Source: Blastochloris viridis
GTDB taxonomy: Bacteria; Pseudomonadota; Alphaproteobacteria; UBA2136; UBA6156
DNA: 64,000 nucleotides
NCBI GenBank assembly: GCA_005768725.1
Contig: VAFM01000002.1
Coordinates: forward strand, 276,486 to 340,485
Direction of reading: 5' to 3'
Shown: positions 22,462-37,498 of the stretch, piece by piece
Position numbering within the stretch: the stretch's first letter is position 1
Layout: every line of letters begins with the position of its first letter
Notes under the pieces: generated by a model
The model's database searches: none
What the model was told of the DNA's origin: nothing
What the model saw: the letters and a program-made list of their open reading frames with translations, nothing else
Translations under genes and position numbers: made by a program

Positions 22462-22523
22462 TCGCCACCATAATGCTTAAAAACAAAGCCACCCACAAGG
22501 GTGGCCGCCACGTCTCCGCGCGT

Positions 22524-23009
22524 TTATTCGGCAGCGGCGGCAGGCACAAGGGTTTCCGAAACCTCCTCAACCGCCTCGCTCGGCAAAGCCGCTTCCGGCG
22601 GCACGGTGGTGGTGGATGACGTCCCTTCAGCCACCATCGCGGGCCCCGTCTCCTCCACCTCACTGTTACTGACAAACCCGGCAGCCAGTACCGCTGCCAC
22701 AGCGCTACCCGAAACCACGCGCGGTGCCGCCGGCACCGTGCCGCTCACCGGCTCCATCGGCGCAATAATATCCAGCGCAGTGGCAGGCACATACCCCATG
22801 GTCTGAACCACACGCTCCATGCGGCTGGGGCTGGCCAACAAGGCCCATTCCGCTTCCAGCACCCGCTTGGTCTCGCGCAGCTCGGCACGCTCGCGCACCA
22901 GTTGCATACGCTGGCGGTCCATGGTCTGGACGTCGGTCTTGATACGCATCATGCCGGCAAACGCCGCCACACTCAGCAATACCGCCAGCAACACCAGACT
23001 ATTTCTCAT
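22524..23009 (-). CDS. ftsL: Cell division protein FtsL-like (TM anchor + coiled coil, Ala/Glu/Val-rich tail)
   Basis: Position immediately upstream of ftsI; N-terminal TM then REAELRETKRVLEAEW coiled coil. Confidence 0.6.
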   Translation of the reverse strand: MRNSLVLLAVLLSVAAFAGMMRIKTDVQTMDRQRMQLVRERAELRETKRVLEAEWALLASPSRMERVVQTMGYVPATALDIIAPMEPVSGTVPAAPRVVSGSAVAAVLAAGFVSNSEVEETGPAMVAEGTSSTTTVPPEAALPSEAVEEVSETLVPAAAAE

Positions 23010-23035
23010 ACCCCCAACCTAACAGCGCCTCAGCT

Positions 23036-23072
23036 GCAAAACAAGACCGGCCCCTTCAGGCCGGTCTGTTTG
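23036..23072. terminator. Bidirectional terminator between ftsL start region and the 23092 gene
   Basis: aaaacaag-agaccggcccc-ttca-ggccggtct-gttt. Confidence 0.55.
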
Positions 23073-23091
23073 GCGGGCAGCCGTGTGACTT

Positions 23092-23727
23092 CTAGTGTCC
23101 GCTGCCCTGGGCCTCGGCACCTGCCGGAGGCGTTTCATCGGCCGGAGTCGCCGGTTGGATCTCAGCGGTCGGGGTCGCTGGCTTTTCATCAATGGCCGGT
23201 TCCTTTACAGGAGCCGTTTCTGCCGGAGCGGTTTCCGCAGGCAGAGCTTCCTCGGTGGCAGCCTCTTCCTTCACAACCACCTTCTTGGCAGCCTTCTTCA
23301 CAGCCGGTTTGGCAACAGGGGTCGGCACACGTTTGCCGTTCTCATCCCAACGGTCAGCAAACTTGGCTTCGCCTTTACCCACAACAAACAAGCCGCTGGT
23401 CGGGTCAAAGGTAAAGCGGTCATATCCCTTTTCACGGGCATATTCCTGCCAGCTCTTGTCAGCCGTGTCCGGGAACTGGGTGGTGGTGCCGTCTTCCAGC
23501 TTCACGGTCGCCATGTGGCCCGGGTCAACGGTCGGGGCGCTGCCAACAGCCGTGGTTTCCACGGTAGTGTAGGTGGTCGTGGTGGTGGTCGGCACGTCCG
23601 AGTACGGGTTGGCCGGTACTTCGTGGGTCACGGTCGTGGTGTTTTCTACCTGCTCAACCATCACTTGGGCGTTAGCTTGGGTAGCTACCAGAGCAGCGGC
23701 CGCAGCAACATACAACATCTTGTTCAT
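23092..23727 (-). CDS. Secreted protein with poly-Thr tract and Lys/Ala/Pro/Glu-rich (histone H1-like) C-terminus
   Basis: Signal peptide MNKMLYVAAAAALVATQANA; AGGAGAAAA RBS at internal Met. Confidence 0.55.
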   Translation of the reverse strand: MNKMLYVAAAAALVATQANAQVMVEQVENTTTVTHEVPANPYSDVPTTTTTTYTTVETTAVGSAPTVDPGHMATVKLEDGTTTQFPDTADKSWQEYAREKGYDRFTFDPTSGLFVVGKGEAKFADRWDENGKRVPTPVAKPAVKKAAKKVVVKEEAATEEALPAETAPAETAPVKEPAIDEKPATPTAEIQPATPADETPPAGAEAQGSGH

Positions 23728-23932
23728 TTTAGGTTTTTCTCCTGTGTTGGATACCTTCATCATAAAGGCTCATCGGCAGTATAATGCACAATCACGCGGT
23801 TTGTTCAGCGTTTGGGTACGCTGCGTGCGCTTTTTTCCCAAGGGGGTGTGCCCATGGGGTTTTCCAATCATCCCGGAACCTTTGCCACGCTGTCCCGTCT
23901 CTCTCTTGATTAAGAAAACGACCAAGAAAGGT

Positions 23933-24508
23933 ATGACCATGACAACACTATCCGAAGCCCGCATCCTTATCCTCGCCACCGACGGCTTTGAACAATCCGA
24001 ACTGGAAACCCCGCTGAACGAACTCCGCGCCGCAGGTGCCACAGTGCACGTCTGTGCACCCTCCCAAACCAAGGAAGAAGGCGTCATTCGCGGCTGGAAA
24101 GACGGCGACTGGGGTACCACTGTTCCGGTTGATGTGATTCTGGAATCCAGCACCGACTGGCCCTACCACGCTCTAGTGCTGCCGGGCGGTGTGATCAACC
24201 CAGACACCCTGCGCACCAACCCCAATGCCGTGAAGCTGGTGCAGGCATTCGTCAACGAAGGCAAACCGGTCGCCGCCATCTGCCACGGCCCATGGCTGCT
24301 GGCCGAAGCCGATGTGGTGAACGGCCGTAAGGTCACCTCCTACACCTCCATTAAAACCGACATGATCAATGCCGGTGCCGACTGGCAGGATGCCGAGGTG
24401 GTGACCGACAACGGACTCATTACCTCGCGTAAGCCGTCCGACCTTCCCGCCTTCGTCGCCAAGATCCTCGAGGAAGTGCAGGAAGGCCAGCACCGCCGCG
24501 CCGCATAG
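23933..24508 (+). CDS. DJ-1/PfpI family protein (class I glutamine amidotransferase-like)
   Basis: AICHGP nucleophile-elbow motif, 191 aa from MTMTT start with AAGAAAGG RBS. Confidence 0.8.
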   Translation: MTMTTLSEARILILATDGFEQSELETPLNELRAAGATVHVCAPSQTKEEGVIRGWKDGDWGTTVPVDVILESSTDWPYHALVLPGGVINPDTLRTNPNAVKLVQAFVNEGKPVAAICHGPWLLAEADVVNGRKVTSYTSIKTDMINAGADWQDAEVVTDNGLITSRKPSDLPAFVAKILEEVQEGQHRRAA

Positions 24509-24693
24509 CGCTACCATACAACCCATAAGCCTCTCGGAATGGGAGGCTTTTTAGTATCTTACCGATAAAAATCCTTGTCTCCCCATCTTGACGAAGCCCA
24601 ACGCTCATTGCATACAAAGCATGTCGCAAGACATATGTTTGAAGTATCCCTAAATCACGTTCACCTTTCAGCCATTCCAAAAGGAGAGGAACC

Positions 24694-25128
24694 ATGCTGA
24701 AGAAACTTCTCACCTGCGCCAGCGCGGCCCTGATCACCGCTGCCATGCTGTCCACCAGCGCCCATGCCGACCTCCGCCGCTCCGGCCAGGCCGCCTGGGA
24801 TGTTTACCAGGGTCGTCTCGGCCTGAAGATCGGCGGCAACGCCAGTATGATCTTCGGCAACGAAACCTACTGCTCACGCGGTCAGGTGCAGAATATGGTC
24901 TATGGCCACTACAACCAGAACGTCGAGTTCGTCGGCAACATGTCGTCCCTCATCGGCCGTATGAACGGCAGCTGGGGCGGCAGCGGAGACTCGGACGGTT
25001 ACGTTCTTGCAGACGTCTTCGACTGCGGCGTCTCGCTCGGCGGGCGTCTCAGCGGCGCCGTCTGCGTCTCGCTGGACATCATGCAGCCGATGGGCACCCG
25101 CTACTGCGCCTACGGCACGCAGGAGTAA
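24694..25128 (+). CDS. Secreted protein (144 aa), hypothetical
   Basis: Signal peptide ..STSAHA; AAAAGGAGAGG RBS. Confidence 0.5.
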   Translation: MLKKLLTCASAALITAAMLSTSAHADLRRSGQAAWDVYQGRLGLKIGGNASMIFGNETYCSRGQVQNMVYGHYNQNVEFVGNMSSLIGRMNGSWGGSGDSDGYVLADVFDCGVSLGGRLSGAVCVSLDIMQPMGTRYCAYGTQE

Positions 25129-25198
25129 CCCTGCACGCACATGCGGAACGCCCTCCCGGCGTTCCGCAACTCCTTTCATGGTTCAGGAGGAACCCCTC

Positions 25199-25915
25199 AT
25201 GAAAATGCGTCCTACCTTACTTCTGGCCGCCTGCATCGCGCTTACGGCTTCCACGGCCATGGCCCAGCAGGTACCCAAGAATATCTCCGGTGATATCCTC
25301 ACCGACGACATCAACATCCACAGCCGCAACAGCGCAGAGGTCTGCTGGTCCAACAGTGACAATCAGACCTGCCATACTCTAGTGGGTGCCGGTAACGACC
25401 GCAACTGCACCGATAGCACTCTGCTTCGCACCGCCGAAACCTTCATGAACCGGAAGTTCCGCTACTACAATACCGACCGGCTCATGGATGAAGACGGCAA
25501 TCTCGAGATTCAGGGCGTCGGCGGTCTCCGCTCGTTCCTGAAACGCGACCGCGATGGCGGCATCTTTGCCGCCCTGCTCCGGTGCACCAGAAATGGTGAA
25601 TTCACCGGCACCTACGCGCTGCTGATCGATCTGGAAGACACCATGACCAACGAAGGCACCTTCAAGCCGGAAGGACTGTTCCATGTCGCCATCGACACGG
25701 GCGACGACGACATGGAACAAGTCGAACACGCTCCCGCTACTGTCGAAGACGAACCTATCGTCACGGAAAAACCGGTCGTCGTCACGCAGGAAGAGCAACT
25801 TCCCGCCAAGCCTTCGGCCAAGGCCGGACTGGCGAAGCAGGTCGAATCCCTGTCGGAAGAAGATGCCGAGGCCATCGCCAAAGCCATTCAGGAGATCAGG
25901 GATAAAAAGCAATAA
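25199..25915 (+). CDS. Secreted protein, tandem paralog E (238 aa) with acidic C-terminal tail
   Basis: Signal peptide ..ASTAMA; AGGAGG RBS; paralogous core shared with 26064 gene (..YALLIDLED.. vs ..YALIIDKDE..). Confidence 0.55.
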   Translation: MKMRPTLLLAACIALTASTAMAQQVPKNISGDILTDDINIHSRNSAEVCWSNSDNQTCHTLVGAGNDRNCTDSTLLRTAETFMNRKFRYYNTDRLMDEDGNLEIQGVGGLRSFLKRDRDGGIFAALLRCTRNGEFTGTYALLIDLEDTMTNEGTFKPEGLFHVAIDTGDDDMEQVEHAPATVEDEPIVTEKPVVVTQEEQLPAKPSAKAGLAKQVESLSEEDAEAIAKAIQEIRDKKQ

Positions 25916-25928
25916 CCCTCTATATTGT

Positions 25929-25959
25929 AAAAAACGGCAGCCCAGTGGCTGCCGTTTTT
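25929..25959 (+). terminator. Rho-independent terminator (identical copy at 26628-26657)
   Basis: aaaaacggcagcc-cagt-ggctgccgttttt. Confidence 0.7.
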
Positions 25960-26063
25960 CTCTTTTCCATGGCATCGCTCGGCCCACCTTGACCACTCGT
26001 ATCACTCAATATATACAGCAATCACCACAACTTAGCCCTTTCCTCACGCCCGGAGCCTCTCTC

Positions 26064-26621
26064 ATGCGCGCATCTTTCCGTCTGTCTCTTTCCGTTCTGG
26101 CCATGGTCATGTGCCATGTCCCGCAACCCTCTGCCGCCGCCGAGCCCAAGATCGACATCATTTACGGCAACCTACTCAATTACAAAATAGATCTCCGCGA
26201 TCCGGCCATCACCTTGTGTTGGGAAGAGATCTTCAGCCCCGGCAAGCTCAAAGCATGCCGGACCGTTGTTCCTTCCGATACCTATGGCCAGGCCCTCACC
26301 TGCCCTCTGATGAATGTCGGGGATATGGCGGAAAGCTTCATGACGATCTGGCGCAATGTTCTCAAACTGAAGGGTGATTTCAGCCAGATACCCGAATGGC
26401 CTGCCATAACGGGCTTTGCGGCCCTGCCTCGCATTCTGGCGACCAATGGCGAAGGCACGCTGCATGCAAGCCTGATCCAATGCCAGGTGGACGGTCAGCT
26501 GACGGATATCTACGCCCTGATCATCGATAAGGACGAGGTCAACCTGTCGGACGCCAAGGCCGAAAAGGGACTGTATCCAGAAGCCGTCTTCAAGGTGACG
26601 CTGCAAAAGCCGTCCAAATAA
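26064..26621 (+). CDS. Secreted protein, tandem paralog F (185 aa)
   Basis: Signal peptide ..PSAAA; shares core with gene E; identical terminator downstream. Confidence 0.55.
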   Translation: MRASFRLSLSVLAMVMCHVPQPSAAAEPKIDIIYGNLLNYKIDLRDPAITLCWEEIFSPGKLKACRTVVPSDTYGQALTCPLMNVGDMAESFMTIWRNVLKLKGDFSQIPEWPAITGFAALPRILATNGEGTLHASLIQCQVDGQLTDIYALIIDKDEVNLSDAKAEKGLYPEAVFKVTLQKPSK

Positions 26622-26627
26622 CGTCGC

Positions 26628-26657
26628 AAAAACGGCAGCCCAGTGGCTGCCGTTTTT
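26628..26657 (+). terminator. Rho-independent terminator (identical to 25929-25959)
   Basis: aaaaacggcagcc-cagt-ggctgccgttttt. Confidence 0.7.
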
Positions 26658-26700
26658 GCGTTTCTTGCCAAAGGTACACAAATCCCCTAGGTTACGGCAC

Positions 26701-27345
26701 ATGATCACCCGCCCGACCCCGACCATCACCCTTGTCCATAACGATCTCCCCGCCGGCCTCACCTTCCCGAACGGCATGGTCGCGATCGATACCGAAACCA
26801 CCGGCCTCTCGCTGGTGACCGACCGCCTGTGCCTGGCCCAGGTCGGCGATGGCGAAGGCAACGTCTGGCTGGTCAAGTTCGATGGCTCCGACTACTCCGC
26901 ACCTAACCTGCGCAAAGTGCTGGAAGACCCGCGCCTCATTAAGCTCTTCCACTTCGCCCGCTTCGACCTCGCCATGCTGCAAAAATGGCTGGGCCTGCCG
27001 GAGATCCATCCCTCTTTCTGCACCAAAATCGCCAGCAAGCTCACCCAACCCGGCCCGGGCAAACATAACCTGCGCACCCTGTGCAAAGACTTTCTGGGTG
27101 TCGAGCTCGATAAGACCGAGCAGATGTCCAACTGGGCGGCAGAAGAACTGACCGAAAGCCAGATGAACTACGCCGCCTCGGACGTTCTCTACCTGCATGA
27201 GCTCTACCAGATCTTCAGCGACAAACTGACCGAAATGGGTCTCAACGTCGCCATGCACAACGCCCTCAACTTCCTCGCCACTCGCGTCGAGCTCGACCTC
27301 AAGGGCTACCCCGAGACCGATCTCTTCTCCCACACCGGCTGGTAA
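26701..27345 (+). CDS. RNase D-like 3'-5' exonuclease (DEDDy family), short single-domain form
   Basis: Exo I AIDTETTGL, Exo III YAASDVLYL motifs; 214 aa. Confidence 0.75.
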   Translation: MITRPTPTITLVHNDLPAGLTFPNGMVAIDTETTGLSLVTDRLCLAQVGDGEGNVWLVKFDGSDYSAPNLRKVLEDPRLIKLFHFARFDLAMLQKWLGLPEIHPSFCTKIASKLTQPGPGKHNLRTLCKDFLGVELDKTEQMSNWAAEELTESQMNYAASDVLYLHELYQIFSDKLTEMGLNVAMHNALNFLATRVELDLKGYPETDLFSHTGW

Positions 27346-27358
27346 TCCCGCCTGAATG

Positions 27359-27385
27359 AAAAGCCCCGCACACGCGGGGCTTTTT
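27359..27385. terminator. Bidirectional terminator
   Basis: agccccgc-acac-gcggggct then T5. Confidence 0.65.
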
Positions 27386-27399
27386 AGTATCGGCTTCAG

Positions 27400-27924
27400 C
27401 TACATGCCGCGCGTACACAAAAATTCCTGAGTATGACACTCATTCAAATAAACACCGCCACTTCCCGGATATTTACAGAAATTCGACATTTCGTTTTCAC
27501 TCATACGGTCGGTACCATACCCAATATGTAACACTTTCGCGTCGCCGCAACGCGGTACGCCATTCTGGCATCCGGTTGCATCCCCCCACGGGTTGCGTAT
27601 GGTCCAGTCAGTCCCAACACGGGGTCCCGACTCCGGCGTCAGACACTGCCCACCACCCGTAATCACAAAGCCGCGCATACAGCCGTTACCATCTGCGCCA
27701 GCCTGTCCAGTCGCATAAAACGCCCCCTTACGCGCACAGGCATCCACCTGATTAAGCCGTATATGCGCCGATTTCGCATTATTGTTGGCTTGGTCGGCAA
27801 TATTCTGCAAAGCCGACCAACTGGCCTCCATGTTCAAACTTCCTCCCGCCGTCCGCTCTTGGGCATAGCTGCCGCACACCAGGCTTAAGGCAACGACAAC
27901 AACCGACCAGACACGTACGTTCAT
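27400..27924 (-). CDS. Secreted Cys-rich protein, paralog B of the QERTAGG family (9 Cys in C-terminal half)
   Basis: Signal peptide ..GSYA|QE; N-terminal 60 aa about 65% identical to paralog A, C-terminus unrelated. Confidence 0.6.
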   Translation of the reverse strand: MNVRVWSVVVVALSLVCGSYAQERTAGGSLNMEASWSALQNIADQANNNAKSAHIRLNQVDACARKGAFYATGQAGADGNGCMRGFVITGGGQCLTPESGPRVGTDWTIRNPWGDATGCQNGVPRCGDAKVLHIGYGTDRMSENEMSNFCKYPGSGGVYLNECHTQEFLCTRGM

Positions 27925-28013
27925 GAAGGAATCTTTCTTTTGGTTCTGTAATATTATAACCCTGAAGAGCAAGCAAACCTGACGCCTTCCAAATTCTTAA
28001 AAAATCAGCCCGA

Positions 28014-29021
28014 TTGCCAAAATGCCCGATCAGCGGTATTTCAATACCCATGCAAAACCAAGCCCTCGCCGCTGCGCTGGAAACCCTCCGCGCTGAAACC
28101 GCCGCTCTTCAGAACCTCACCAAGGCTCTGGAGGCCGACCCCGCACTGCCCGCCGCACTCAGCCTGCTGCAGGCGGTAACCCTGAATGGCGGCGGACGGG
28201 TCATCGTCACCGGCGTAGGCAAATCCGGTCACATCGGCGGCAAGATCGCCGCTACCTTGGCCAGCACCGGTACCCCGGCCTTCTTTGTACACCCCACCGA
28301 AGCCCTGCACGGCGACCTCGGCATGATTACCAAGTCCGATGTCATCATCGCCCTTTCCCACAGCGGCGAAAGCAAAGAGCTGGCCGCGGTTGTCACCTAC
28401 GCCACACGCTTCTCCATCCCGCTTATCGCCGTCACCGGTAAACCCGCCAGCACGCTGGCCAAAGCCGCCAAGGTCACCCTCAATACCCGTGTCGAGAAAG
28501 AAGCCTGCCCGCTGAATCTCGCCCCCACCACCAGCACCACAGTGGCGCTGGCGCTGTGCGACGCACTGGCTGTCGCGCTGATGACCGCGCGCGGCTTCAG
28601 CAAAGAAGACTTTGCGGTCTTCCACCCCGGCGGCAAACTCGGCGCCCAGCTGCTGCGGGTGAAGGAGATCATGGTGGACGAGAACCTGCCGCTGCATTCC
28701 GAAAACGCCCCGATGGCCGACGTTCTGGTCACCCTCACCGCCAGCAACCTCGGCTGCGTCGGCCTCACCGATGCCAAGGGCAACCTCACCGGTATCTTTA
28801 CCGATGGCGACCTCAAGCGCCGCCTGACGCCAGACCTCCTCTCCCGCACGGTGGCCGACGTCATGACCCGCACACCCAAAACCATCACGCCAGACGCCCT
28901 CGCCACCGCCGCCGTGGCGCATATGGAACAAACCAACGTCACAACCCTTTGGGTTACAGACAAAAACAAACCCGTCGGCCTGCTGCGCATTCAGGAATGC
29001 CTGCACGCCAACGTCATCTAA
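28014..29021 (+). CDS. kdsD: Arabinose-5-phosphate isomerase (KdsD/KpsF family; SIS + tandem CBS)
   Basis: GRVIVTGVGKSGHIG SIS motif, C-terminal CBS pair; followed by lptC-lptA-lptB. Confidence 0.88.
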   Translation: MPKCPISGISIPMQNQALAAALETLRAETAALQNLTKALEADPALPAALSLLQAVTLNGGGRVIVTGVGKSGHIGGKIAATLASTGTPAFFVHPTEALHGDLGMITKSDVIIALSHSGESKELAAVVTYATRFSIPLIAVTGKPASTLAKAAKVTLNTRVEKEACPLNLAPTTSTTVALALCDALAVALMTARGFSKEDFAVFHPGGKLGAQLLRVKEIMVDENLPLHSENAPMADVLVTLTASNLGCVGLTDAKGNLTGIFTDGDLKRRLTPDLLSRTVADVMTRTPKTITPDALATAAVAHMEQTNVTTLWVTDKNKPVGLLRIQECLHANVI

Positions 29022-29046
29022 ACCTGTACTGGAAAGCCCGTCTCGC

Positions 29047-29697
29047 ATGCTTCAGCGTCGTCGCGTCATTATCCTCCTGCTGCTGGCCGCTGTGGGTATT
29101 CTGGGGGTTATTCTGTTCCTCAACGTGCGTCCCAGCACCATGTTCAGTCTGGCCGCACCTATTGCCAAACCGCTCACATCATCCTCCCTGCCGCAAGGTG
29201 TCTCCACCACGCTGGATGGCCCGCTCACCCAAGTCTCCGGCACCACATTGCTGGAAAAACCGCGCTATACCGGCCAGGACGCCCTGGGCCGCAACTGGAC
29301 CGTCCAGGCCGAAAACGCCCTGCAGGGCGGTACAGCCTCCAGCGGCACCTACATCCTCCAACAGGTTACCGCCGAATGGTCCGATCCCAAGCAACAGACA
29401 CCACTCACCATCCGCGCCGAAGAAGGCGACTACAGCCAGACCTCGTCCTCCATTCAGTTGACCGGCAACGTCCAGGCCACCGGCATGGGCCTCAACCTCA
29501 CCGCCCCGCAAATGAATGCCGACCTCGCCAGTCGCCGTATCACCGCCAGCGGCGGCAGCCATGTCACCGGCACGGTGGGCAAAGAAAAAGGCGGCTGGAA
29601 CATCGACCTCAAAGCACCCAATCTCTCCGCCGACCCTTCCAGCAGCATCCTGCTGTTCACCGGCGGCGTTCGTGCTAAACTGACCCCCATCAAATAA
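29047..29697 (+). CDS. lptC: LPS export protein LptC-like (N-terminal TM anchor, periplasmic beta-jellyroll)
   Basis: Position between kdsD and lptA; TM anchor LLLLAAVGILGVILFL. Confidence 0.6.
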   Translation: MLQRRRVIILLLLAAVGILGVILFLNVRPSTMFSLAAPIAKPLTSSSLPQGVSTTLDGPLTQVSGTTLLEKPRYTGQDALGRNWTVQAENALQGGTASSGTYILQQVTAEWSDPKQQTPLTIRAEEGDYSQTSSSIQLTGNVQATGMGLNLTAPQMNADLASRRITASGGSHVTGTVGKEKGGWNIDLKAPNLSADPSSSILLFTGGVRAKLTPIK

Positions 29698-29711
29698 TCA
29701 CAGGCATAGCC

Positions 29712-30203
29712 ATGAACACCCGTCTCTCCTCAAGCGTCCTTACTCTCGCCCTGGCCACCCTCACGCTGGCCCCGGCCTACGCCGCCACCCAGGGTCCTAT
29801 CGACATCACCGCCCAGAAGCTGGAAGTCAACCAGTCCTCCAGCAAGGCCGTCTTCAGCGGCAACGTCGTGGTCACGCAGCAGGGTCTCACCCTTACCGCC
29901 CCGACTGTCACCGCCGATTACACCAGCAAAGCGGGTAACAGCGGCATTCAAACCGTCACCGCCTCGGGCGGCGTGGTCATTACCCGCAACGGCACCGGCG
30001 GCGTAACCGAAAAAGCCACCGGCTCCACCGCGGTGTACAACCCCGATGCCGGCAACCTCACGCTCACCGGCGCGGTCACGCTGGTGCGCGGCCCAAGCGA
30101 ACTGTCCGGCGACAAACTGGTCTATAACCTCACCACCGGTAATGCCGTGGTGACCAACAGCGCTGGCCCGGTTAAAGCCCGCTTCGTGCCCGGCGGCAAG
30201 TAG
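29712..30203 (+). CDS. lptA: LPS transport periplasmic protein LptA (OstA-N domain)
   Basis: Signal peptide, OstA-like repeats, 163 aa, immediately upstream of lptB. Confidence 0.7.
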   Translation: MNTRLSSSVLTLALATLTLAPAYAATQGPIDITAQKLEVNQSSSKAVFSGNVVVTQQGLTLTAPTVTADYTSKAGNSGIQTVTASGGVVITRNGTGGVTEKATGSTAVYNPDAGNLTLTGAVTLVRGPSELSGDKLVYNLTTGNAVVTNSAGPVKARFVPGGK

Positions 30204-30237
30204 CCATCGCGCTTCATGTGTGCTACAAACGCCGCCA

Positions 30238-30993
30238 ATGACCACTGCCTCTACCCCTCCCGCCAAAGGCCTGTATGTCGAAGGCCTGCAGAAACGCGTT
30301 GGCGCCCGCCAGATTCTGCGCAATGTCTCTCTCTCCGTCCAGCGCGGCCAGGTCGTGGCCCTGCTGGGGCCCAACGGCGCCGGTAAAACCAGCAGCTTCC
30401 AGGCCGTTATCGGCCTGACCCATGTCGATAGCGGCGTGATCACGCTGGACGGCGCCGATCTTACCCACCTGCCCATGTACCGCCGTGCCCGTCTGGGCCT
30501 CGGCTATTTGCCACAGGAGAGCAGCATTTTCCGCGGCCTGTCGGTAGAAAAGAACCTGCTCGCGGTGCTCGAAATGGTCTGCCGCACCCACGCCGAGCAA
30601 ACCACGCGCCTTGAAGAACTGCTCAACGAATTCGGCCTGACCAAGGTCCGCCACAGCCCGGCCCCTGCCCTTTCGGGTGGTGAACGCCGCCGTGTCGAGA
30701 TCGCACGCGCACTGGCCGCCAATCCGCAATTCATGATGCTCGACGAACCCTTTGCCGGGGTCGACCCTCTCGCCATCCGCGACGTGAAGAACTTGGTGCT
30801 GCACCTCAAAACGCGCGGCATGGGCGTCCTGATTACCGACCACAACGTCCGGGATACGTTAAGCCTTGTCGACCACGCCTACATCATGGCCGAAGGTCAG
30901 GTCCTAGCCTCCGGTACGCCGGCGCAGATCGTCGCCAACCCGGACGTTCGCCGCGTCTATCTGGGCGACGACTTCGAACTCGCCAAATCCTAA
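30238..30993 (+). CDS. lptB: LPS export ABC transporter ATP-binding protein LptB
   Basis: Walker A GPNGAGKTS, signature LSGGERRRVEIARAL, Walker B MLDEPFAGVD; start at MTTAS (track start 30220 also possible). Confidence 0.88.
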   Translation: MTTASTPPAKGLYVEGLQKRVGARQILRNVSLSVQRGQVVALLGPNGAGKTSSFQAVIGLTHVDSGVITLDGADLTHLPMYRRARLGLGYLPQESSIFRGLSVEKNLLAVLEMVCRTHAEQTTRLEELLNEFGLTKVRHSPAPALSGGERRRVEIARALAANPQFMMLDEPFAGVDPLAIRDVKNLVLHLKTRGMGVLITDHNVRDTLSLVDHAYIMAEGQVLASGTPAQIVANPDVRRVYLGDDFELAKS

Positions 30994-31157
30994 CCGATTG
31001 TCCGACAATCCGTCGCGCCAAAAGGCGCTTATCCGCCATTGTCTTTACGGAAAACGGAAACGACCGCCCTACCCCCTTGCCTTCTTATTCTGAAAGGTTC
31101 ATGTAAGAAACGTCTCCCGGAGACATCACATCATTTACATATGCGGAGGGGAAACTC

Positions 31158-31400
31158 ATGATGCGTTTAGTTGAAACGCCGCTCATCGGCGCCATTATCT
31201 GCCTGATTCCCGTGTACCTTGCGTTGACCTACCTTCACATACCCGCTGAAACATTCAAACCGTTCCTGATGCTCTGCTTCCTGGGATACATGTTCCTGGC
31301 TGCGGCCTGCGCCACCATTACCGCCTTCCACGGCACCGCTATATTTGTAGTCGCGGCACTTATGCTTCTGGGTCTGGCACATGTAACGCCAATCCTCTGA
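31158..31400 (+). CDS. Small membrane protein (80 aa, 2-3 TM), hypothetical
   Basis: Hydrophobic ORF with GGAGGGGAAA RBS; shares a bidirectional terminator with accD. Confidence 0.4.
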   Translation: MMRLVETPLIGAIICLIPVYLALTYLHIPAETFKPFLMLCFLGYMFLAAACATITAFHGTAIFVVAALMLLGLAHVTPIL

Positions 31401-31418
31401 ATACCTTACTTCGTCCGT

Positions 31419-31451
31419 AAAAAACGCCGCCCTTGTCCAGAGCGGCGTTTT
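31419..31451. terminator. Bidirectional terminator (serves accD on minus strand)
   Basis: A6-cgccgc..gcggcg-T4. Confidence 0.55.
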
Positions 31452-31469
31452 GTTATGTCGCGTAAACTC

Positions 31470-32333
31470 TTAAGCCTTGCGACCGGCCGTCATCATGCCG
31501 AGCAGCTTGGCCAACGTGGCACGCTGCTCGCTGCGCGGCGTCACCATATCCACCATCCCGTGCTCCAGCAGATATTCGGCACGCTGGAAGCCTTCCGGCA
31601 ACGTCTGGCGGATGGTCTGCTCGATCACCCGCGCCCCGGCAAACCCGATCAGAGCCCCGGGCTCCGCCATATGCACGTCACCGGTCATCGCGAAACTCGC
31701 ACTCACACCACCGGTGGTCGGGTCGGTCAGTAACACAAGATACGGCAAACCAGCCTCTTTCAGCATCGCAATTGCGGCCGTGCTGCGTGCCATCTGCATC
31801 AGGCTCAGGGTGCTTTCCTGCATGCGGGCACCACCACTCGCGGTGATAACCATCATCGGGATCTTCTTTTCCAGCGCATACTGGGCGGTCGCCACCAAAG
31901 CTTCCCCCACACCACGGCTCATAGAGCCTGCCATGAAGCCGAAGTCCAGCGCGCACACCGCTACCGGCTGGCTCTCAATATGGCCATGCAGCGCACGGAA
32001 AGCATCGCTGTGACCACTGGCGGCGCGGGCGTCTTTCAGACGCGCCTTGTAGGCTTTCTTGTCCTTGAAATTTAGGGGGTCGTCGGCTGGCACCGGCACG
32101 GCAATCTCCACCGGAGCCTTGCCTTCGTCCTGATCCAGCAGATACTCCAGACGCGCATCGATATCCCAGCGCAAATGGTGGTTACAATGCGTGCAGCAGA
32201 ACAGGTTCTGCGGCAGTTCGGCGGCGTAAATCAGTTGGCCACAGCCGGGGCACTTTTCCCACACATCGGCGGCAACCTCGCGCTTTTTGGTGGTTTTGAT
32301 GCTCGGACGGATCAGATCGGTAAGGAACGACAT
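31470..32333 (-). CDS. accD: Acetyl-CoA carboxylase carboxyltransferase subunit beta
   Basis: N-terminal Zn ribbon CPGCGQ..CTHCNHH, carboxyltransferase domain; start at MSFLTD Met. Confidence 0.9.
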   Translation of the reverse strand: MSFLTDLIRPSIKTTKKREVAADVWEKCPGCGQLIYAAELPQNLFCCTHCNHHLRWDIDARLEYLLDQDEGKAPVEIAVPVPADDPLNFKDKKAYKARLKDARAASGHSDAFRALHGHIESQPVAVCALDFGFMAGSMSRGVGEALVATAQYALEKKIPMMVITASGGARMQESTLSLMQMARSTAAIAMLKEAGLPYLVLLTDPTTGGVSASFAMTGDVHMAEPGALIGFAGARVIEQTIRQTLPEGFQRAEYLLEHGMVDMVTPRSEQRATLAKLLGMMTAGRKA

Positions 32334-32431
32334 GCCCCCTCTATACCGCAAAATCCCCTTGCACGCACGTTTTTTAGAGTATACAGACCACCCATCCACG
32401 AGGAACATACCGCACATACGGAGCAAGACGC

Positions 32432-32992
32432 ATGTCATCCGATGCCTACTACATTTCCAAAGCCTTTCACGTCATTACCGAACGTATAGCCCGCAAAGGC
32501 GCAACCGAAAAGCTGCCCAACTGGCACCGCGCCAAACCGATCCTTCTCGGCCAGACATGCCTCCCGCCTGATCGCGAGGATCTGGCCCAGGTGCTCTATA
32601 ACCTGTGGGAGAAAAGCCTGACCTACTACCAGCAGGCCGACCTGTTTCTGCCACGGCCGGATATCCTGCACCCAGGCTCGCACGACAATCCGGACATGCT
32701 CTGCATAACCGAGCATCAGGCCACAACCTACAAGCTGCGTATCCTGACCGAAAAACAACATCAACGGCCCGGCACATGGCAGGCGTTCGACCTCTACGCC
32801 AGAACCCCGCCAAAACAGCGGCCCAGGCTCAAACAGGGTTATGGCGAAGTTCCGGTCCGGCTTCTGCAAACCATGCCGAACGTGCATATGGCTCGTGCCA
32901 TCACGCTGGCGGTGGTCATCACCGCCAACCGTCACTTGCACGGCATCTACCCCCGCACGCTGATCGCTCTGGAGCGCGAAGCCGTCTGCTAA
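32432..32992 (+). CDS. Hypothetical protein (186 aa)
   Basis: Plus-strand frame chosen over the mirror minus ORF because of upstream GGAG and the strong plus-strand terminator at 33004-33043. Confidence 0.4.
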   Translation: MSSDAYYISKAFHVITERIARKGATEKLPNWHRAKPILLGQTCLPPDREDLAQVLYNLWEKSLTYYQQADLFLPRPDILHPGSHDNPDMLCITEHQATTYKLRILTEKQHQRPGTWQAFDLYARTPPKQRPRLKQGYGEVPVRLLQTMPNVHMARAITLAVVITANRHLHGIYPRTLIALEREAVC

Positions 32993-33003
32993 AACCACCT
33001 ATA

Positions 33004-33043
33004 GGAGCCTCTCTGACATCCTGCAGAGAGGCTCTCTTTTTTT
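33004..33043 (+). terminator. Rho-independent terminator
   Basis: gagcctctctg-acatcct-gcagagaggctc then T7. Confidence 0.7.
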
Positions 33044-33128
33044 ACATATTTACAACATGTAACACCCGTTATTTGGCCTATCTGGCACGTGTCAAATGCA
33101 CGCCTCCTGAATGATGCTATAAGAGGGT

Positions 33129-33656
33129 ATGAAAAACATTGTCATCACTCTCGCTTTCGTCCTGTCATTGTTCATAAGTCCGGTTAATTACGCCCAAGAG
33201 CGCACCGCAAGTGGCAATCTCATGCAGGAAGCCAACTGGAATTCACTGAAAAGCCTGGTCGATGCCGCCAGTAAAAAAGTCGACATGATGCAGGCCCAGA
33301 TCGACAAGATTGCAGAATGTGGTACCGCAGGTATGGTGTATGCTCCCGGCGAGACCAGCACCAGTATCAATGGCTGTAAAAAAACCAATGCAACACTCGC
33401 ACCATTTGTCGTGACCGCTGCCGGGAGTAACGAGCAAGCTATCGCGCAGTGCCCCTCCACTGCCGTCCGTATCGGCTGTGCCGGTGCCCGGGATGTCAAC
33501 CTCAGCGATGGCTGCCGCGAAGAATCCTGCGGCGTGATGGGAGCCATTCCTTACGGTGCCAACGGCTGCCTGATGCGCAATACTAACGACGGCGGCCGCA
33601 AAGCCAACGAACGCGCTCTTACTCCTGTTGCCTACGCTTTCTGCACCCCCAAATAA
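33129..33656 (+). CDS. Secreted Cys-rich protein, paralog C of the QERTAGG family
   Basis: Signal peptide ..VNYA|QE; conserved N-terminal module, divergent Cys-rich C-terminus; AAGAGGG RBS. Confidence 0.6.
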   Translation: MKNIVITLAFVLSLFISPVNYAQERTASGNLMQEANWNSLKSLVDAASKKVDMMQAQIDKIAECGTAGMVYAPGETSTSINGCKKTNATLAPFVVTAAGSNEQAIAQCPSTAVRIGCAGARDVNLSDGCREESCGVMGAIPYGANGCLMRNTNDGGRKANERALTPVAYAFCTPK

Positions 33657-33673
33657 GCCGAGCAAAATCACCT

Positions 33674-33701
33674 AAAACCCCTGTTTAAGCAGGGGTTTTT
33701 G
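33674..33701 (+). terminator. Rho-independent terminator
   Basis: aaaacccctg-tttaag-caggggttttt. Confidence 0.7.
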
Positions 33702-33763
33702 ATTGTCGATAGCGAATGAAAGATATACATACACATATCTACATCCGTACACGGAGTATTATC

Positions 33764-34312
33764 ATGACGTTTGCGCGCCTTATCGCAAGGCACGAACATC
33801 AAACCGCATCGCGCCCAAAACCACCCCAAACCCACGAATACTTTGGACTCGCCGTCCATCATGTTCTCTTCTATTTAAACTACAAGGGAGACCCCCTGCA
33901 ACTTTCACGAAAGGATATTCAGGCCGAACTGACGAATACGCTGAACATCAAGTACGAAAAACGTCTCGCAAATAGCCAGCTAACCCGGCGTATCACATTA
34001 ACGTGGCACGCCATTACGCAGTACGTTTATGAGAACTCAACCTACTTCACGACCGAGGTCGGGTTTCTGGGTAATCGCAAGATAGACTTGATACTGGAAC
34101 ACCCGGACGGCACGATCGAGCTGGTCGAAATTAAGACCTATAAAAAGAAAACCAAGACCTACTGCAAAAGGACTGCCACGAAACAACTGGCGGATGCCCG
34201 CAAGTTTATTTTGGAACATTATCCGGACACCAAGCTGAAATGGACAAAGATTCTGATCCAGAATGATCTCAGTAAACCCTTCAAGTGCCAGATTCTACGC
34301 GCCCCCTCGTGA
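33764..34312 (+). CDS. PD-(D/E)xK nuclease-fold protein (YraN/Hjc-like core GNRKIDLILEHPDGTIELVEIKT), low-GC ORFan
   Basis: E..D..ExK catalytic-motif arrangement; local GC about 47% versus about 60% background; flanked by terminators (start could be 33716). Confidence 0.5.
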   Translation: MTFARLIARHEHQTASRPKPPQTHEYFGLAVHHVLFYLNYKGDPLQLSRKDIQAELTNTLNIKYEKRLANSQLTRRITLTWHAITQYVYENSTYFTTEVGFLGNRKIDLILEHPDGTIELVEIKTYKKKTKTYCKRTATKQLADARKFILEHYPDTKLKWTKILIQNDLSKPFKCQILRAPS

Positions 34313-34314
34313 AA

Positions 34315-34343
34315 GAGCCTCCCCGCAAAGGAGGCTCTTTTTT
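34315..34343 (+). terminator. Rho-independent terminator
   Basis: agagcctcc-ccgcaaa-ggaggctct then T6. Confidence 0.7.
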
Positions 34344-34409
34344 CGCAGATACCTTGTCTTAACGCCCCCTTTTCGCTAGATTCCACCCCGTAAAAGGAAA
34401 GGAATCCCT

Positions 34410-34934
34410 ATGTCCCTCAAAGACCTGCCCGCTGGCAAAGAACCCCCGCACGATATCTACGTGGTGGTGGAAAACCCCAAGCACACCCCGCACATCAAGT
34501 ACGAGGTCGATAAGGATACCGGCTTGCTGTTCGTCGACCGCTTTGCGCCGATGCCGATGGTCTTCCCGGCCCACTACGGCTTCATCAATAACACGCTGGG
34601 TGGCGATGGCGACCCGGTCGACGCGTTTGTCTACACCGACATCGCCGTGGTTCCGGGTGCGGTTGTCCGCTGCCGTCCGGTAGGCGTGCTGATGACCACC
34701 GACGAGAGCGGCGAAGACGCCAAACTGGTCTGCGTGCCGCACAAGAAGCTCGACCCGCGCTTTGAAAACATCAAGGACTACACCGACCTGCCGCAGATGT
34801 TCCGCGACCAGCTCGAGCAGTTCTACAGCCACTATAAGAACCTCGAACCCGGCAAGTGGGTCAAGATCGCCGGCTGGGGCGATGTCAAGGCCGCCGAAGC
34901 CATTGTGCTCAAGGGCATCACCGACGCCAAGTAA
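34410..34934 (+). CDS. ppa: Inorganic pyrophosphatase (family I)
   Basis: 174 aa, PPase signature DGDPVDAFV, conserved throughout. Confidence 0.92.
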   Translation: MSLKDLPAGKEPPHDIYVVVENPKHTPHIKYEVDKDTGLLFVDRFAPMPMVFPAHYGFINNTLGGDGDPVDAFVYTDIAVVPGAVVRCRPVGVLMTTDESGEDAKLVCVPHKKLDPRFENIKDYTDLPQMFRDQLEQFYSHYKNLEPGKWVKIAGWGDVKAAEAIVLKGITDAK

Positions 34935-34951
34935 CAGGCACATACCTGCAC

Positions 34952-34975
34952 AAAAGGGCCCATAGGGCCCTTTTT
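34952..34975 (+). terminator. Rho-independent terminator after ppa
   Basis: aaaagggccc-ata-gggccctttt. Confidence 0.7.
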
Positions 34976-35020
34976 GCTATCCCTAAATCATTGTCCAGTC
35001 TATCAGGTTTGCTAAAGATA

Positions 35021-35416
35021 TTAAGCGTGAGTTGCTTTGGCTTTGATCCACATCAGATGCTCCGTCAGATTAGTTTTCACCTGTTCCAGCGTCTGAATTC
35101 GCTGATGCAAAGACTCGGCAAATTGCATACACTCCTCAAGACCACGCAGACATTCCGCCTCTTCAGTAGAGTTACCATTTGCCCTAGCCTCATCTAACCA
35201 TTGAGACCACTGACGAACACGTTCCTCCGTCTCAACAAGCATGGGTCGTAATGCAAGAAGTTGATTCTCAGCCTCAGCTAAAACCTCTCTCCCCTCGGCA
35301 GCGACGAATTGCGCCTTCAGAATAAGGCGCTCATATTCTTCATCGTCGGTTTCGATATCGTAGAAGTTTTCTAACATGATCCATTGAGTCTGAACCAGAC
35401 TGAGCTGACAAGACAT
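35021..35416 (-). CDS. Acidic coiled-coil hypothetical protein (131 aa), low-GC ORFan
   Basis: GGAGTGAAGAA RBS before ATG; local GC about 46%; no recognisable domain. Confidence 0.45.
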   Translation of the reverse strand: MSCQLSLVQTQWIMLENFYDIETDDEEYERLILKAQFVAAEGREVLAEAENQLLALRPMLVETEERVRQWSQWLDEARANGNSTEEAECLRGLEECMQFAESLHQRIQTLEQVKTNLTEHLMWIKAKATHA

Positions 35417-35428
35417 TTCTTCACTCCA

Positions 35429-35453
35429 ATAAAAAGCCCCGTAACGGGGCTTT
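35429..35453 (-). terminator. Rho-independent terminator after rsmH
   Basis: On minus strand: agccccg-tta-cggggct followed by TTTTT. Confidence 0.6.
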
Positions 35454-35461
35454 CTTCACTC

Positions 35462-36457
35462 TTATCCAACCCGTTCCAGCGTCCGCAAAATCGCACTCCG
35501 CGCACGCGGGTTTACGTCAATCTCCGCATCACTCGGCACGATCTTCTTCCCCATCTTGAACTTGGCCGGGGTCTTGACGCGACCGATCTCATCCAGCTCA
35601 TCCAGACACAACCGGCGGAACGCCGCCTTCACCGCACGCTCTTCCAGCGGCTGGAACGAAATCACCGCCAGCACGCCACCCTTTTTCAAACACCACGCCG
35701 CATCCGGCAGCGCGCGCTCCAGCACGGCCAGTTCATCATTCACGGCCACACGCAGGGCCTGAAAAATACGCGCCGCCGGGTGGGCACGCTTCAGGCCTAA
35801 CTTAGGCGGATACACCTGCTCCACCGCCGCCAATAAATCTTTGGTGGTCTCAAACGGCTGAGCCTTGCGCTGCTTGACGATCAGACGCGCCAGCACACGG
35901 CTCTTCGGCTCTTCACCGTACACATAAAAGATATCGGCCAATTCTTCCTCGCGGGAGGTGTTCAGCACGTCCGCAGCGGTCTTTTTCATGCTGCTGTTGA
36001 GGCGCATATCCAGCGGCCCCTCAAAATGATAACTCAAGCCGCGCTGAGGGTCGTCCAGTTGGTCGCTACTGAACCCAAGGTCGAGCAGAATCCCATCGGC
36101 CAGCGGGGGTAACGCGCCCACTTTGCGCTTGCCGCAGGTCACGCTGTTTTGCAGTACCGGTCCGGCCAATACTTCGGGAATGGTATCGTAGGCGGCACGT
36201 ACCAGGTGCACACGGTCGCCAAAGGTTTCCACCAGCGGCGCACAGCGCACTAATGCACGGCTGTCCCAGTCCAGTCCCACCACTTCGGCCCCGCGCTCCA
36301 GCAGGCCACGGGTGTGCCCACCACCGCCCAAAGTACCATCCACCAGCAGTTTTCCGGCGGCAGGTTCAAGGGCATCCATCACTTCATGGAACAGCACAGG
36401 GACGTGCACCGTCTCGGCCGTACCGCGCGTTTCTAGCAAAGTGGAATCCCCATTCAT
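35462..36457 (-). CDS. rsmH: 16S rRNA (cytosine1402-N4)-methyltransferase RsmH (MraW)
   Basis: SAM-binding TLGGGGH motif, 331 aa, downstream of mraZ. Confidence 0.9.
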   Translation of the reverse strand: MNGDSTLLETRGTAETVHVPVLFHEVMDALEPAAGKLLVDGTLGGGGHTRGLLERGAEVVGLDWDSRALVRCAPLVETFGDRVHLVRAAYDTIPEVLAGPVLQNSVTCGKRKVGALPPLADGILLDLGFSSDQLDDPQRGLSYHFEGPLDMRLNSSMKKTAADVLNTSREEELADIFYVYGEEPKSRVLARLIVKQRKAQPFETTKDLLAAVEQVYPPKLGLKRAHPAARIFQALRVAVNDELAVLERALPDAAWCLKKGGVLAVISFQPLEERAVKAAFRRLCLDELDEIGRVKTPAKFKMGKKIVPSDAEIDVNPRARSAILRTLERVG

Positions 36458-36633
36458 GGCCGCCTTCTACCCCAAATCGCAGATTAACCCAAGCGAAAAA
36501 GCGGCGCGAAGCCGCATTATTTCTGAATTTTTTTCGTATTTTAGTAAACTACCAACCTAAAAAAACGAGCCTCCCCCGAAGCTCGTTTTCACAAAGATAA
36601 TTTTCCAGTCGAAGGAAAGTTCCCTCACCTTTT

Positions 36634-37110: not shown

Positions 37111-37263
37111 CCTTCCGTTGTGGCGCCGCATCGTGCGTTGCCGGTTAATTTCGTGGCCGGGGTCGCCCAGTACTCGCGTACTCTCCGGCCTTGGTCCCTC
37201 GTAGGCGGTCCCCCATGAACCGCCCGCTCCCTTGGAACCTTTTGGATCACCCATGGTTGTATT

Positions 37264-37298
37264 TGGGCGACACTGGGAATCTATGGGATGTTATGGGA
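37264..37298 (+). promoter_or_regulatory. Four direct TGGGN repeats with 10-nt periodicity (TGGGC/TGGGA/TGGGA/TGGGA) in the mraZ-rnpB divergent region; candidate MraZ operator
   Basis: tttgggcgacactgggaatctatgggatgttatgggac; matches the published MraZ-box architecture (TGGGN direct repeats, 10-bp spacing). Confidence 0.4.
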
Positions 37299-37465
37299 CA
37301 ACGCAAGAGGAAAAGTGACATACCCCGCAGTATTTCTCGCCTAAGGCTGTGGATAAGTCTGGGGACGGAATCCCAAACACCCCCTCAAACAGCGCGGCCA
37401 CACGCCAAAAGAAAAAGATCGGCCCATAAAATCCCATCGGAACAAACCTTGTTTTTCCCCTCCCC

Positions 37466-37494: not shown

Positions 37495-37498
37495 GCAC

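Follow-up and report, generated by a model that had tools for sequence, protein, structure and literature searches.

The cluster of genes for division and the cell wall (dcw) in the 64,000-nucleotide stretch of DNA analyzed here (the window, from contig VAFM01000002.1 of assembly GCA_005768725.1, deposited as Blastochloris viridis) is interrupted between rsmH and ftsL by 12,452 bp that hold 19 called genes, and the adjacency of rsmH and ftsL that characterizes the canonical cluster is absent. It is very probable that this 12.45-kb stretch is a lineage-specific, vertically inherited rearrangement of native chromosomal genes and not a mobile element. We propose that two native housekeeping blocks were relocated into the rsmH-ftsL spacer in the common ancestor of the window species and two relatives, L006 and L049. 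Block B, comprising sec223, DJ-1, the RNase D-like exonuclease, kdsD, lptC, lptA and lptB, would have been moved as it stood, and block D, comprising ppa, orfX and accD, would have been moved and inverted, which would place the inverted accD beside lptB as it is now. Comparison of gene orders and protein trees demonstrates the derived state of the split, the two donor blocks, the inversion of block D, the vertical descent of the arrangement and the later accretion of genes; the recombination mechanism and the effects on transcription are inferred.

The interruption between rsmH and ftsL

Genes were called with a codon-usage score and checked against the gene calls on independent contigs of the same organism. 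The window has a GC content of about 58% and a strongly negative GC skew. Both genes that bracket the insert lie on the minus strand: rsmH (mraW; 35462-36457; PF01795, E = 1e-84) ends at 35462, and ftsL (22524-23009; NCBIfam FtsL_COG5462, 52.4 bits with the cut-off at 50) starts at 23009. Also on this strand, rsmH is preceded by mraZ (36634-37098; PF02381, E = 3e-20), a 154-aa gene that is also called in independent contigs, and ftsL is followed by ftsI (20602-22461) and murE (18992-20437), both identified by Pfam, with which it forms a downstream dcw module spanning 18992-23009. The earlier note on this DNA, which was made from the sequence alone, had described a gap of 12.4 kb between two genes on the same strand, and this description holds in independent assemblies. 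The rsmH-side junction was found again in five independent contigs and the ftsL-side junction in contigs of other samples; six contigs carry this FtsL, with sec223 upstream in both of the two displayed. Both junctions are also present in two other species.

Read from ftsL toward rsmH, the insert opens with block B (23092-30993). Its first gene, sec223 (23092-23763, minus strand), is co-oriented with ftsL and encodes a protein with a signal-like N-terminus; it is followed on the plus strand by the DJ-1/PfpI gene (23933-24508), by three accessory secreted-protein genes, sec144 (24694-25128), sec238 (25199-25915) and sec185 (26064-26621), and by the gene for an RNase D-like 3'-5' exonuclease (DNA_pol_A_exo1; 26701-27345). 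A further accessory secreted-protein gene, sec174, lies on the minus strand (27400-27924) and precedes the plus-strand series kdsD (28050-29021), lptC (29047-29697), lptA (29712-30203) and lptB (30238-30993). These four genes are collinear and encode SIS and CBS, LptC, LptA/OstA and ABC ATPase domains, respectively, which is the core of a lipopolysaccharide (LPS) transport operon. At the junction between block B and the inverted block, D' (31470-34934), mem80 (31158-31400, plus strand) was called as a gene for an 80-aa membrane protein without a family match; it is species-specific and is found neither in L006 nor in L049. Block D' runs from accD (31470-32333, minus strand) to ppa (34410-34934, plus strand), and between the two lie, all on the plus strand, the called accessory gene orf186 (32432-32992), the accessory secreted-protein gene sec175 (33129-33656) and orf198/182 (33716/33764-34312), a low-GC ORFan (GC 0.47) with a weak PD-(D/E)XK match. 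The insert closes at the junction between ppa and rsmH with orf131 (35021-35416, minus strand), a low-GC ORFan (GC 0.47) without a match in Pfam or NCBIfam.

Most of the content that had been read from the sequence is thus corroborated: Pfam identifies kdsD-lptC-lptA-lptB, accD, ppa, the DJ-1/PfpI gene and the RNase D-like exonuclease, both ORFans are low in GC, and the many intrinsic terminators seen around the insert genes correspond to a real enrichment (32 terminator-like sites against 14.9 ± 3.7 in shuffles). The count of eight or more small secreted-protein genes was too high, since by inspection six small proteins of the insert have a signal-like N-terminal sequence (sec223, sec144, sec238, sec185, sec174 and sec175), to which one 80-aa membrane protein may be added. 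Two further secreted-protein genes, sec113 and sec215, are found between murE and mraY and do not belong to the insert.

The split is a derived state

Relatives were gathered by a one-genome-per-species scan, which returned two close relatives only, by graded series of KdsD, RsmH and AccD homologs and by neighborhood look-ups. The sample comprises nine lineages, three with the split (the window included) and six canonical, all of them metagenome contigs or metagenome-assembled genomes (MAGs). Besides the window, the split is found in L006, a 1.02-Mb MAG contig from a pond (RsmH 89% identical to that of the window), and in L049 (GCA_002422365.1; RsmH 83%), whose arrangement recurs in two further assemblies (L050 and L051). 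In the other six lineages mraZ-rsmH-ftsL-ftsI-murE are contiguous, with RsmH identities to the window of 83% (L007, which equals L054), 80% (L142), 79% (L055), 76% (L056), 66% (L143) and 63% (L139); by tool alignment the six span 57-83%. The context upstream of the cluster is alike in split and canonical genomes, with flagellar hook genes, fumC, a DUF2125 gene and amidase_2 leading to mraZ, and so is the downstream context.

In neighbor-joining trees of MraZ and RsmH, then with FtsI and then also with MurE added (450-1530 ungapped columns), the three split lineages form one clade with bootstrap values of 98-100% that is nested among the canonical lineages; L007/L054 is usually the sister of this clade, and the remaining canonical lineages fall outside. 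Protein identity across the three split lineages is 83-93%. Given that six relatives are contiguous and that the split clade is nested among them, these sequences establish that the split is a derived state, not family-wide, that was inherited vertically in a clade comprising three or more species-level lineages. The distribution, together with the nesting, points to one insertion at the base of this clade, within which the arrangement is fixed and stable. The earlier note had inferred an insertion relative to an ancestral order, and the adjacency of rsmH and ftsL in six related lineages bears this out; it had also named a gene order conserved across the whole family as the outcome that would speak against an insertion, and six of the nine lineages are instead contiguous.

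Origin of the insert from two native blocks

The source of the insert can be read from a sister genome, which consists of L054 (scaffold_66, with the canonical dcw cluster) and of L052 and L137 (overlapping stretches of scaffold_112), all from one assembly. Scaffold_112 has a series from ctaD to ctaE (COX3), followed by sec225 on the minus strand, DJ-1, the exonuclease, four small open reading frames (ORFs), kdsD, lptC, lptA and lptB. After lptB come orf138 and then, on the minus strand, uppP (BacA) and the genes for a NUDIX protein and a thioredoxin (trx), addA, addB, an NTP-transferase gene, tsaE and aspS, and farther on the gene for HU and mipA. From mipA the scaffold continues with ppa on the minus strand, accD on the plus strand, a minus-strand gene labeled MCP, rpmI, rplT, pheS and pheT. 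Thus, blocks B and D are separated in the sister genome by 14 genes (uppP to mipA, about 16 kb). The order and orientation of block B in the interval from ctaE to uppP equal those at 23092-30993 of the window, and block D is inverted in the window, with accD on the minus strand and ppa on the plus strand and with accD abutting lptB. The genes that flank the blocks at the donor locus (segments A, C and E) are absent from the window, and tblastx matches only blocks B and D, besides noise. A second canonical lineage, L138, has the same layout of segments C and D as L137, with an extra orf160 between ppa and accD, and L049, the basal split lineage, shows its exact inverse: accD on the minus strand, orf169 on the plus strand and ppa on the plus strand. 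The proteins of orf169 and orf160 are 55% identical.

Each of the core insert genes (kdsD, lptCAB, accD and ppa) is a single-locus gene, with one native site per relative. A tree of KdsD and AccD is congruent with the dcw tree, recovering the split clade at 89% and this clade plus its sister at 96%, and this match to the host tree makes horizontal transfer of the core unlikely. The identities of insert genes to those of relatives (78-97%) lie within the range of the flanking dcw genes, and the core genes have a GC content at third codon positions of 0.72-0.84, like that of neighboring genes; low GC is confined to orf131 and orf198. The notion of a recent or foreign island is therefore contradicted, as the core consists of the organism's own genes from two nearby chromosomal sites with a host-like phylogeny. 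At the DNA level, breakpoints against the sister flanks of sec225 and ppa could not be located: the intergenic regions have diverged too far for this, and their terminators do not have the same sequence. On the ftsL side, homology to canonical genomes ends about 20 nt upstream of ftsL, which sets the limit of breakpoint resolution. A scan of metagenome contigs with AccD returned relatives at 58% identity or less only, none from the window lineage.

Several points weigh against this reconstruction. The link of L052 and L137 to L054 as one genome is based on three observations: the dcw proteins of L007 and L054 are 100% identical, the scaffold_112 AccD protein and L007 share one mislabeled MAG name in NCBI, and the L054, L052 and L137 loci all come from a single assembly. 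The donor locus is seen in canonical relatives only, and the move may have been a cut-and-paste transfer or a duplication followed by loss. Furthermore, the trees are built from two to four proteins by neighbor joining with L049 on a long branch, AccD alone does not recover the node that joins L049 with the window, and the sampling amounts to three split and six canonical lineages, all metagenome-derived.

Alternative explanations

The features that gave the insert its appearance of a genomic island are real: gene orientation is mixed, terminators and small secreted-protein genes are numerous, content differs between lineages, one of the two low-GC ORFans has a weak PD-(D/E)XK match and both have weak PHROG matches, and a SocA_Panacea gene lies at the L049 junction. 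A horizontally acquired island or integrative element whose integrase was lost later nevertheless seems to us highly improbable. The core is made up of essential housekeeping genes that occur once per relative at a native locus, its phylogeny is congruent with that of the host and its codon composition is native, and the insert lacks a recombinase, a tRNA and an att repeat. None of the called insert genes matches an integrase, recombinase or transposase family in Pfam, PHROGs or NCBIfam, which agrees with the earlier remark that no such gene is visible, and the largest non-coding gap is 185 bp, which leaves no room for a missed gene. There is no tRNA in the 64-kb window. The att-like direct repeats that the earlier note had advised looking for at 23010-23090 and 35417-35461 did not materialize; no direct repeat links the junctions, and the only junction-spanning repeat is a 17-nt match at 88%, which is at chance level. 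By the sequence-level tests applied here (recombinase, att target, foreign phylogeny or composition), the insert fails every one of those for a mobile element, and horizontal transfer may have been limited to small accessory ORFans gained later.

Even less credible, in our judgment, is the proposal that the family or order has had the split as a stable state from early on and that contiguous clusters are secondary. It would account for the stability of the split across three species-level lineages with 83-93% protein identity and would accord with the fact that further interruptions of the cluster, the lack of murF among them, are clade-wide. Against this, rsmH and ftsL are adjacent in six lineages that include both deep outgroups (L143, where the genes overlap, and L139, where 15 nt separate them), the nesting of the split clade has 98-100% support, and repeated re-creation of the exact canonical junction is far less parsimonious than one insertion. 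That all sequences are metagenomic and that several MAGs carry wrong labels in NCBI might point to a chimeric assembly or a binning artifact, which we consider a negligible prospect: both junctions are found again in assemblies that were made independently, from different samples and with different assemblers, and also in two other species, whose contigs reach 1.02 Mb; nothing apart from coverage hints at a join, and genes are intact up to both junctions. We strongly favor a rearrangement of native genes within this lineage.

History of the spacer and growth of the insert

The rsmH-ftsL spacer of canonical lineages measures -4 nt in L143 (overlapping ATGA), 15 nt in L139, 72 nt in L142, 290 nt in L054, 292 nt in L055 and 1188 nt in L056; in the split lineages it measures 7917 nt in L049, 9530 nt in L006 and 12452 nt in the window. 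The graded lengths among canonical lineages indicate that the tight rsmH-ftsL junction had loosened before the insertion took place in this group. As a background step, the spacer went from an overlap to 15-72 bp, about 290 bp and 1.2 kb in relatives; after fixation, the insert grew from 7.9 to 9.5 to 12.45 kb through the gain of small secreted-protein genes, some of them by tandem duplication, and of low-GC ORFans. In the 1.2-kb spacer of L056 (10970-12157 in that locus), a 20-nt palindrome (TCTCTCGTATACGAGAGAC-like) is present three times beside a basic ORF of 55 aa, content that indicates that a different small insertion landed at the same junction.

Accessory genes vary by lineage at four places: three internal hotspots, which separate DJ-1 from the exonuclease, the exonuclease from kdsD and accD from ppa, and the junction of ppa with rsmH. 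At the last of these, orf131 is species-specific, being absent from L006 and replaced at the same place in L049 by the SocA_Panacea gene. Two pairs of accessory genes, sec238/sec185 and sec174/sec175, are paralogs. Identical 30-nt palindromic terminators (AAAAACGGCAGCCCAGTGGCTGCCGTTTTT) follow sec238 (25930-25959) and sec185 (26628-26657), whose products are 27% identical, and such identical terminators after paralogous genes indicate a tandem duplication of gene plus terminator. The cysteine-rich secreted paralogs sec174 (27400-27924, minus strand) and sec175 (33129-33656, plus strand) are 30% identical, have the N-terminus ...AQERTA(G/S)G(S/N)L...(A/S)(S/N)W in common and flank the kdsD-accD core in opposite orientation; neither matches a family in Pfam, PHROGs or NCBIfam.

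Likely consequences for transcription

Upstream of mraZ, the predicted MraZ-box-like operator (37264-37310, minus strand) has three TCCCA (= TGGGA) repeats with 10-bp spacing that overlap a TTGCGT-N17-TAGATT promoter. The array TCCCA-N5-TCCCA-N5-TCCCA at 37274-37298 is the only such triple repeat in 64 kb (0.32 expected), and both it and the promoter are nearly invariant in eight lineages. In sequence, the putative operator matches the architecture described for MraZ operators, which have three boxes with a 10-bp periodicity (PMC12957436). A TGGGA x3 array is found nowhere else in the window, including upstream of sec223 and ftsL, and outside that promoter GTG(G/T)-N6-type MraZ boxes are present in the window at chance level only (7 found and 4.6 expected). 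As MraZ-box-like repeats occur only at the mraZ promoter, an uncoupling of ftsL-ftsI-murE from MraZ control, as the earlier note had supposed, is plausible.

An intrinsic terminator lies directly after the rsmH stop, at the right edge of the insert (35425-35455, minus strand; AAAGCCCCG-TTA-CGGGGCTTT followed by a T-rich tail); its folding energy is -16.2 kcal/mol (z = -2.4). A comparable hairpin follows rsmH at this position in L006, and the rsmH-ftsL spacers of canonical L007 and L055 hold no strong terminator. From these signals we infer that mraZ-rsmH would form a two-gene unit that is read from the MraZ-box promoter and ends at this terminator, and that MraZ would autoregulate mraZ-rsmH only. 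The genes ftsL-ftsI-murE would lie beyond the reach of the mraZ promoter and would most likely be read from a sec223 promoter through a conserved partial (attenuating) terminator. A candidate sigma-70-like site (TGAACA-18-TATACT, 23807-23778; a consensus match only) is present on the minus strand in the divergent intergenic region between sec223 and DJ-1 (23764-23932).

At the left junction, the 82-bp spacer that separates the ftsL ATG from the stop codon of sec223 (23010-23091, minus strand) contains a hairpin and U-tract (23044-23067, then TTGTTTTG) as well as GCTGTTAGG...ATG, a candidate translation-initiation relic. In an alignment of the three split lineages 27 positions around the stem are invariant, even though identity amounts to only 67% for the protein of neighboring sec223. 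The motif GTGNTAG is found about 10-17 nt upstream of the ftsL ATG in eight of the nine lineages, and in L143 it coincides with the rsmH codons Val-Leu-Glu. In lineages with a spacer, the ftsL initiation region looks as if it had kept a copy of the 3' end of rsmH, and GTGNTAG likely carries the ribosome-binding site of ftsL in relatives; similarity upstream of ftsL is significant only for L142 versus L143 (p = 0.001). With the spacer nearly filled by the invariant hairpin, the U-tract and the old ribosome-binding relic, the promoter near 23010-23090 that the earlier note had invoked for ftsL becomes doubtful, and read-through from a sec223 promoter within 23764-23932 appears at least as likely. 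A point against read-through is that this hairpin might stop transcription completely; ftsL would then have to be served by another promoter.

It is possible, and we would give it less than an even chance, that within the same rearrangement ftsL has its own promoter in the 82-bp spacer (CTTGTT-N17-TAGGTT, 23045-23016) and a nearly leaderless mRNA. The three split lineages agree in the two hexamers and in the distance between them, the -10-like hexamer follows a TGN, and the hexamers resemble the alphaproteobacterial promoter type CTTGAC-N17-CTATAT. Yet the -35-like hexamer is the U-tract of the terminator, the -10-like hexamer is part of GTGNTAG and hence of the rsmH Val-Leu-Glu codons in L143, and the promoter scan made no call there. 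Because it coincides with the U-tract and the ribosome-binding relic, we rate such a promoter below read-through from sec223. An extended -10/leaderless ftsL promoter (TGnTAG, 6-7 nt before the ATG) was likewise considered and down-weighted, given that its motif represents rsmH codons in L143 and is probably a ribosome-binding relic.

Comparison with known systems

Break-up of the dcw cluster into sub-clusters has reportedly been observed in various phyla, by Tamames in 2001 and by Megrian in 2022. The gene order of the cluster is among the most strongly conserved in bacteria, and most known breaks are ancient with origins that are hard to reconstruct. The cluster has been described as outstandingly conserved in gene order (PMC5089854), and its history as mainly one of gene loss or delocalization into sub-clusters that keep their internal synteny (PMC8871954). 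Compared with the canonical order of Escherichia coli (mraZ-rsmH-ftsL-ftsI-murE-murF-mraY-murD-ftsW-murG-murC-ddlB-ftsQ-ftsA-ftsZ-lpxC), the window genes are collinear and have a MraZ-box-like triple repeat at the first promoter, whereas the window differs in its 12.45-kb unrelated block between rsmH and ftsL, the terminator after rsmH, the lack of murF and ddl and the extra genes at murE-mraY and ftsA-ftsZ. As in the known break-ups (PMC8871954), the cluster is arranged in modules with internal synteny and vertical inheritance; unlike them, the break is recent (at about the genus level) and bracketed by close relatives with an intact junction, and its modules are only 12 kb apart, with a filler traced to two donor blocks of the same chromosome. 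The insert shares with integrative genomic islands that it is discrete, breaks a conserved operon, varies in content and is rich in small secreted-protein and ORFan genes, and differs from them in having no integrase, tRNA target or direct repeats and a native, host-congruent core. The split is thus another break of an already known kind, an ordinary rearrangement and no new system.

The kdsD-lptCAB block is likewise an ordinary LPS-transport operon without kdsC and rpoN. It resembles the gammaproteobacterial kdsD-kdsC-lptC-lptA-lptB(-rpoN-hpf-ptsN) locus in order, in its placement on one strand with gaps of 14-34 nt and in its Pfam domains. It differs in that kdsC is missing, with lptC starting 25 nt after kdsD, and that rpoN, hpf and ptsN do not follow downstream; instead, lptB is followed by mem80 and accD in the window and by orf138 and uppP in the sister genome. 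Moreover, the block is preceded by DJ-1 and the RNase D-like exonuclease in the family of the window lineage, and in the split clade it lies inside the dcw cluster on the opposite strand.

Only the resolution of this case is unusual, in that the break is young, its relatives are intact and its donor blocks are identifiable. Since the break is young, close relatives are intact and both donor blocks have been identified, the steps are directly readable, from loosening of the spacer through relocation of native genes and inversion to accretion of accessory genes. We think it rather unlikely that the relocation was more than a neutral accident, that is, a functional rewiring that placed LPS transport (kdsD-lptCAB) and the initiation of fatty-acid synthesis (accD) beside peptidoglycan and division genes, took ftsL-ftsI-murE off the MraZ promoter and left them downstream of a gene for a secreted protein and a conserved attenuator hairpin. 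If the rewiring were functional, MraZ would be limited to mraZ-rsmH, and the dosage of division genes would be set by a new promoter and an attenuator; the split clade would then be a natural experiment on the purpose of MraZ control, with isogenic-like sister species that have an intact operon. Paired split and intact lineages would suit tests of whether MraZ control and co-transcription of rsmH and ftsL matter.

Other features of the cluster and its surroundings

Apart from the insert, Pfam assignments show no departure from the canonical order or strand among the dcw genes of the window (mraZ, rsmH, ftsL, ftsI, murE, mraY, murD, ftsW, murG, murC, murB, ftsQ, ftsA, ftsZ and lpxC). No murF lies between murE and mraY (16490-17572, minus strand; identified by Pfam) in any of the nine lineages examined, and no ddl occurs in the 64-kb window, in accordance with the further fragmentation, with murF and ddl missing, that had been noted before. 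Judged by these gene orders, the absence of murF and ddl is older than the insertion, clade-wide and not linked to the insertion event. The murE-mraY gap holds differing genes on the opposite strand: in the window (17573-18991) these encode two secreted proteins of 113 and 215 aa, and the corresponding gaps lie at 3844-4731 in L049, 15216-16698 in L054, 15304-15846 in L055, 6257-6841 in L142 and 14573-14637 in L143, where murE adjoins mraY. In L139 (14786 onward) murE is the last gene before a break in the cluster, and rplI-rpsR-rpsF and fab genes come next. At the usual position of ddl, between murB and ftsQ, lies a gene for a 210-aa S-adenosylmethionine-dependent methyltransferase (Methyltransf_25/11; 9805-10437, minus strand). 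The ftsA-ftsZ gap of 783 bp (6230-7011) contains a doubtful 172-aa plus-strand ORF with a weak TauE match below the cut-off or, alternatively, a 69-aa minus-strand ORF.

Between the mraZ promoter and the ATG (37099-37310, minus strand) lies a leader of about 170-190 nt, of which about 130 nt are nearly invariant (GTCGCCCAAATACAACCATGGGTGATCCAAAAGGTTCCAAGGGAGCGGGCGG...CCGCCTACGAGGGACC..GGCCGG[variable loop]GGGCGAC.CCGGCC). It is conserved in L006, L049, L054, L055, L056, L142 and L139, down to an RsmH identity of 63%, is far better conserved than the coding genes and is lacking in L143. Indels of 1-2 nt break the reading frame, so the leader is not an upstream ORF. RNAalifold predicts three hairpins with only two covarying pairs, and a comparison with Rfam gave no family match (best E = 9.4). 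For the dcw cluster, this leader may be a new RNA with a cis-regulatory role; UpsM, a comparable long mraZ leader, has been reported as exclusive to Rhodobacteraceae (PMC5089854). Terminator-like hairpins also lie within the dcw modules, on the minus strand between mraZ and rsmH (36501-36515), with counterparts at the same position in L007 (8804-8832) and L055 (9878-9896), and between ftsL and ftsI (22487-22506), where the hairpin is no better than shuffles (z = -0.8). These hairpins may be attenuators. Just upstream of mraZ, and divergent from it, is a gene for RNase P RNA (bacterial class A, 166.6 bits; 37496-38018, plus strand). In L007/L054 a DEAD-box helicase gene and a 204-aa gene are inserted between amidase_2 and the RNase P RNA region.

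There is no rRNA gene in the 64-kb window, and its RsmH is at most about 42% identical to that of any named alphaproteobacterial genus returned. It seems that the window lineage is a flagellated group of uncultured alphaproteobacteria that branches deeply. MAGs of this lineage have been deposited under the wrong names 'Blastochloris viridis', 'Pseudomonas fluorescens' and 'Rubrivivax sp.' (P0001/P0121/P0241, L007 and P0024).

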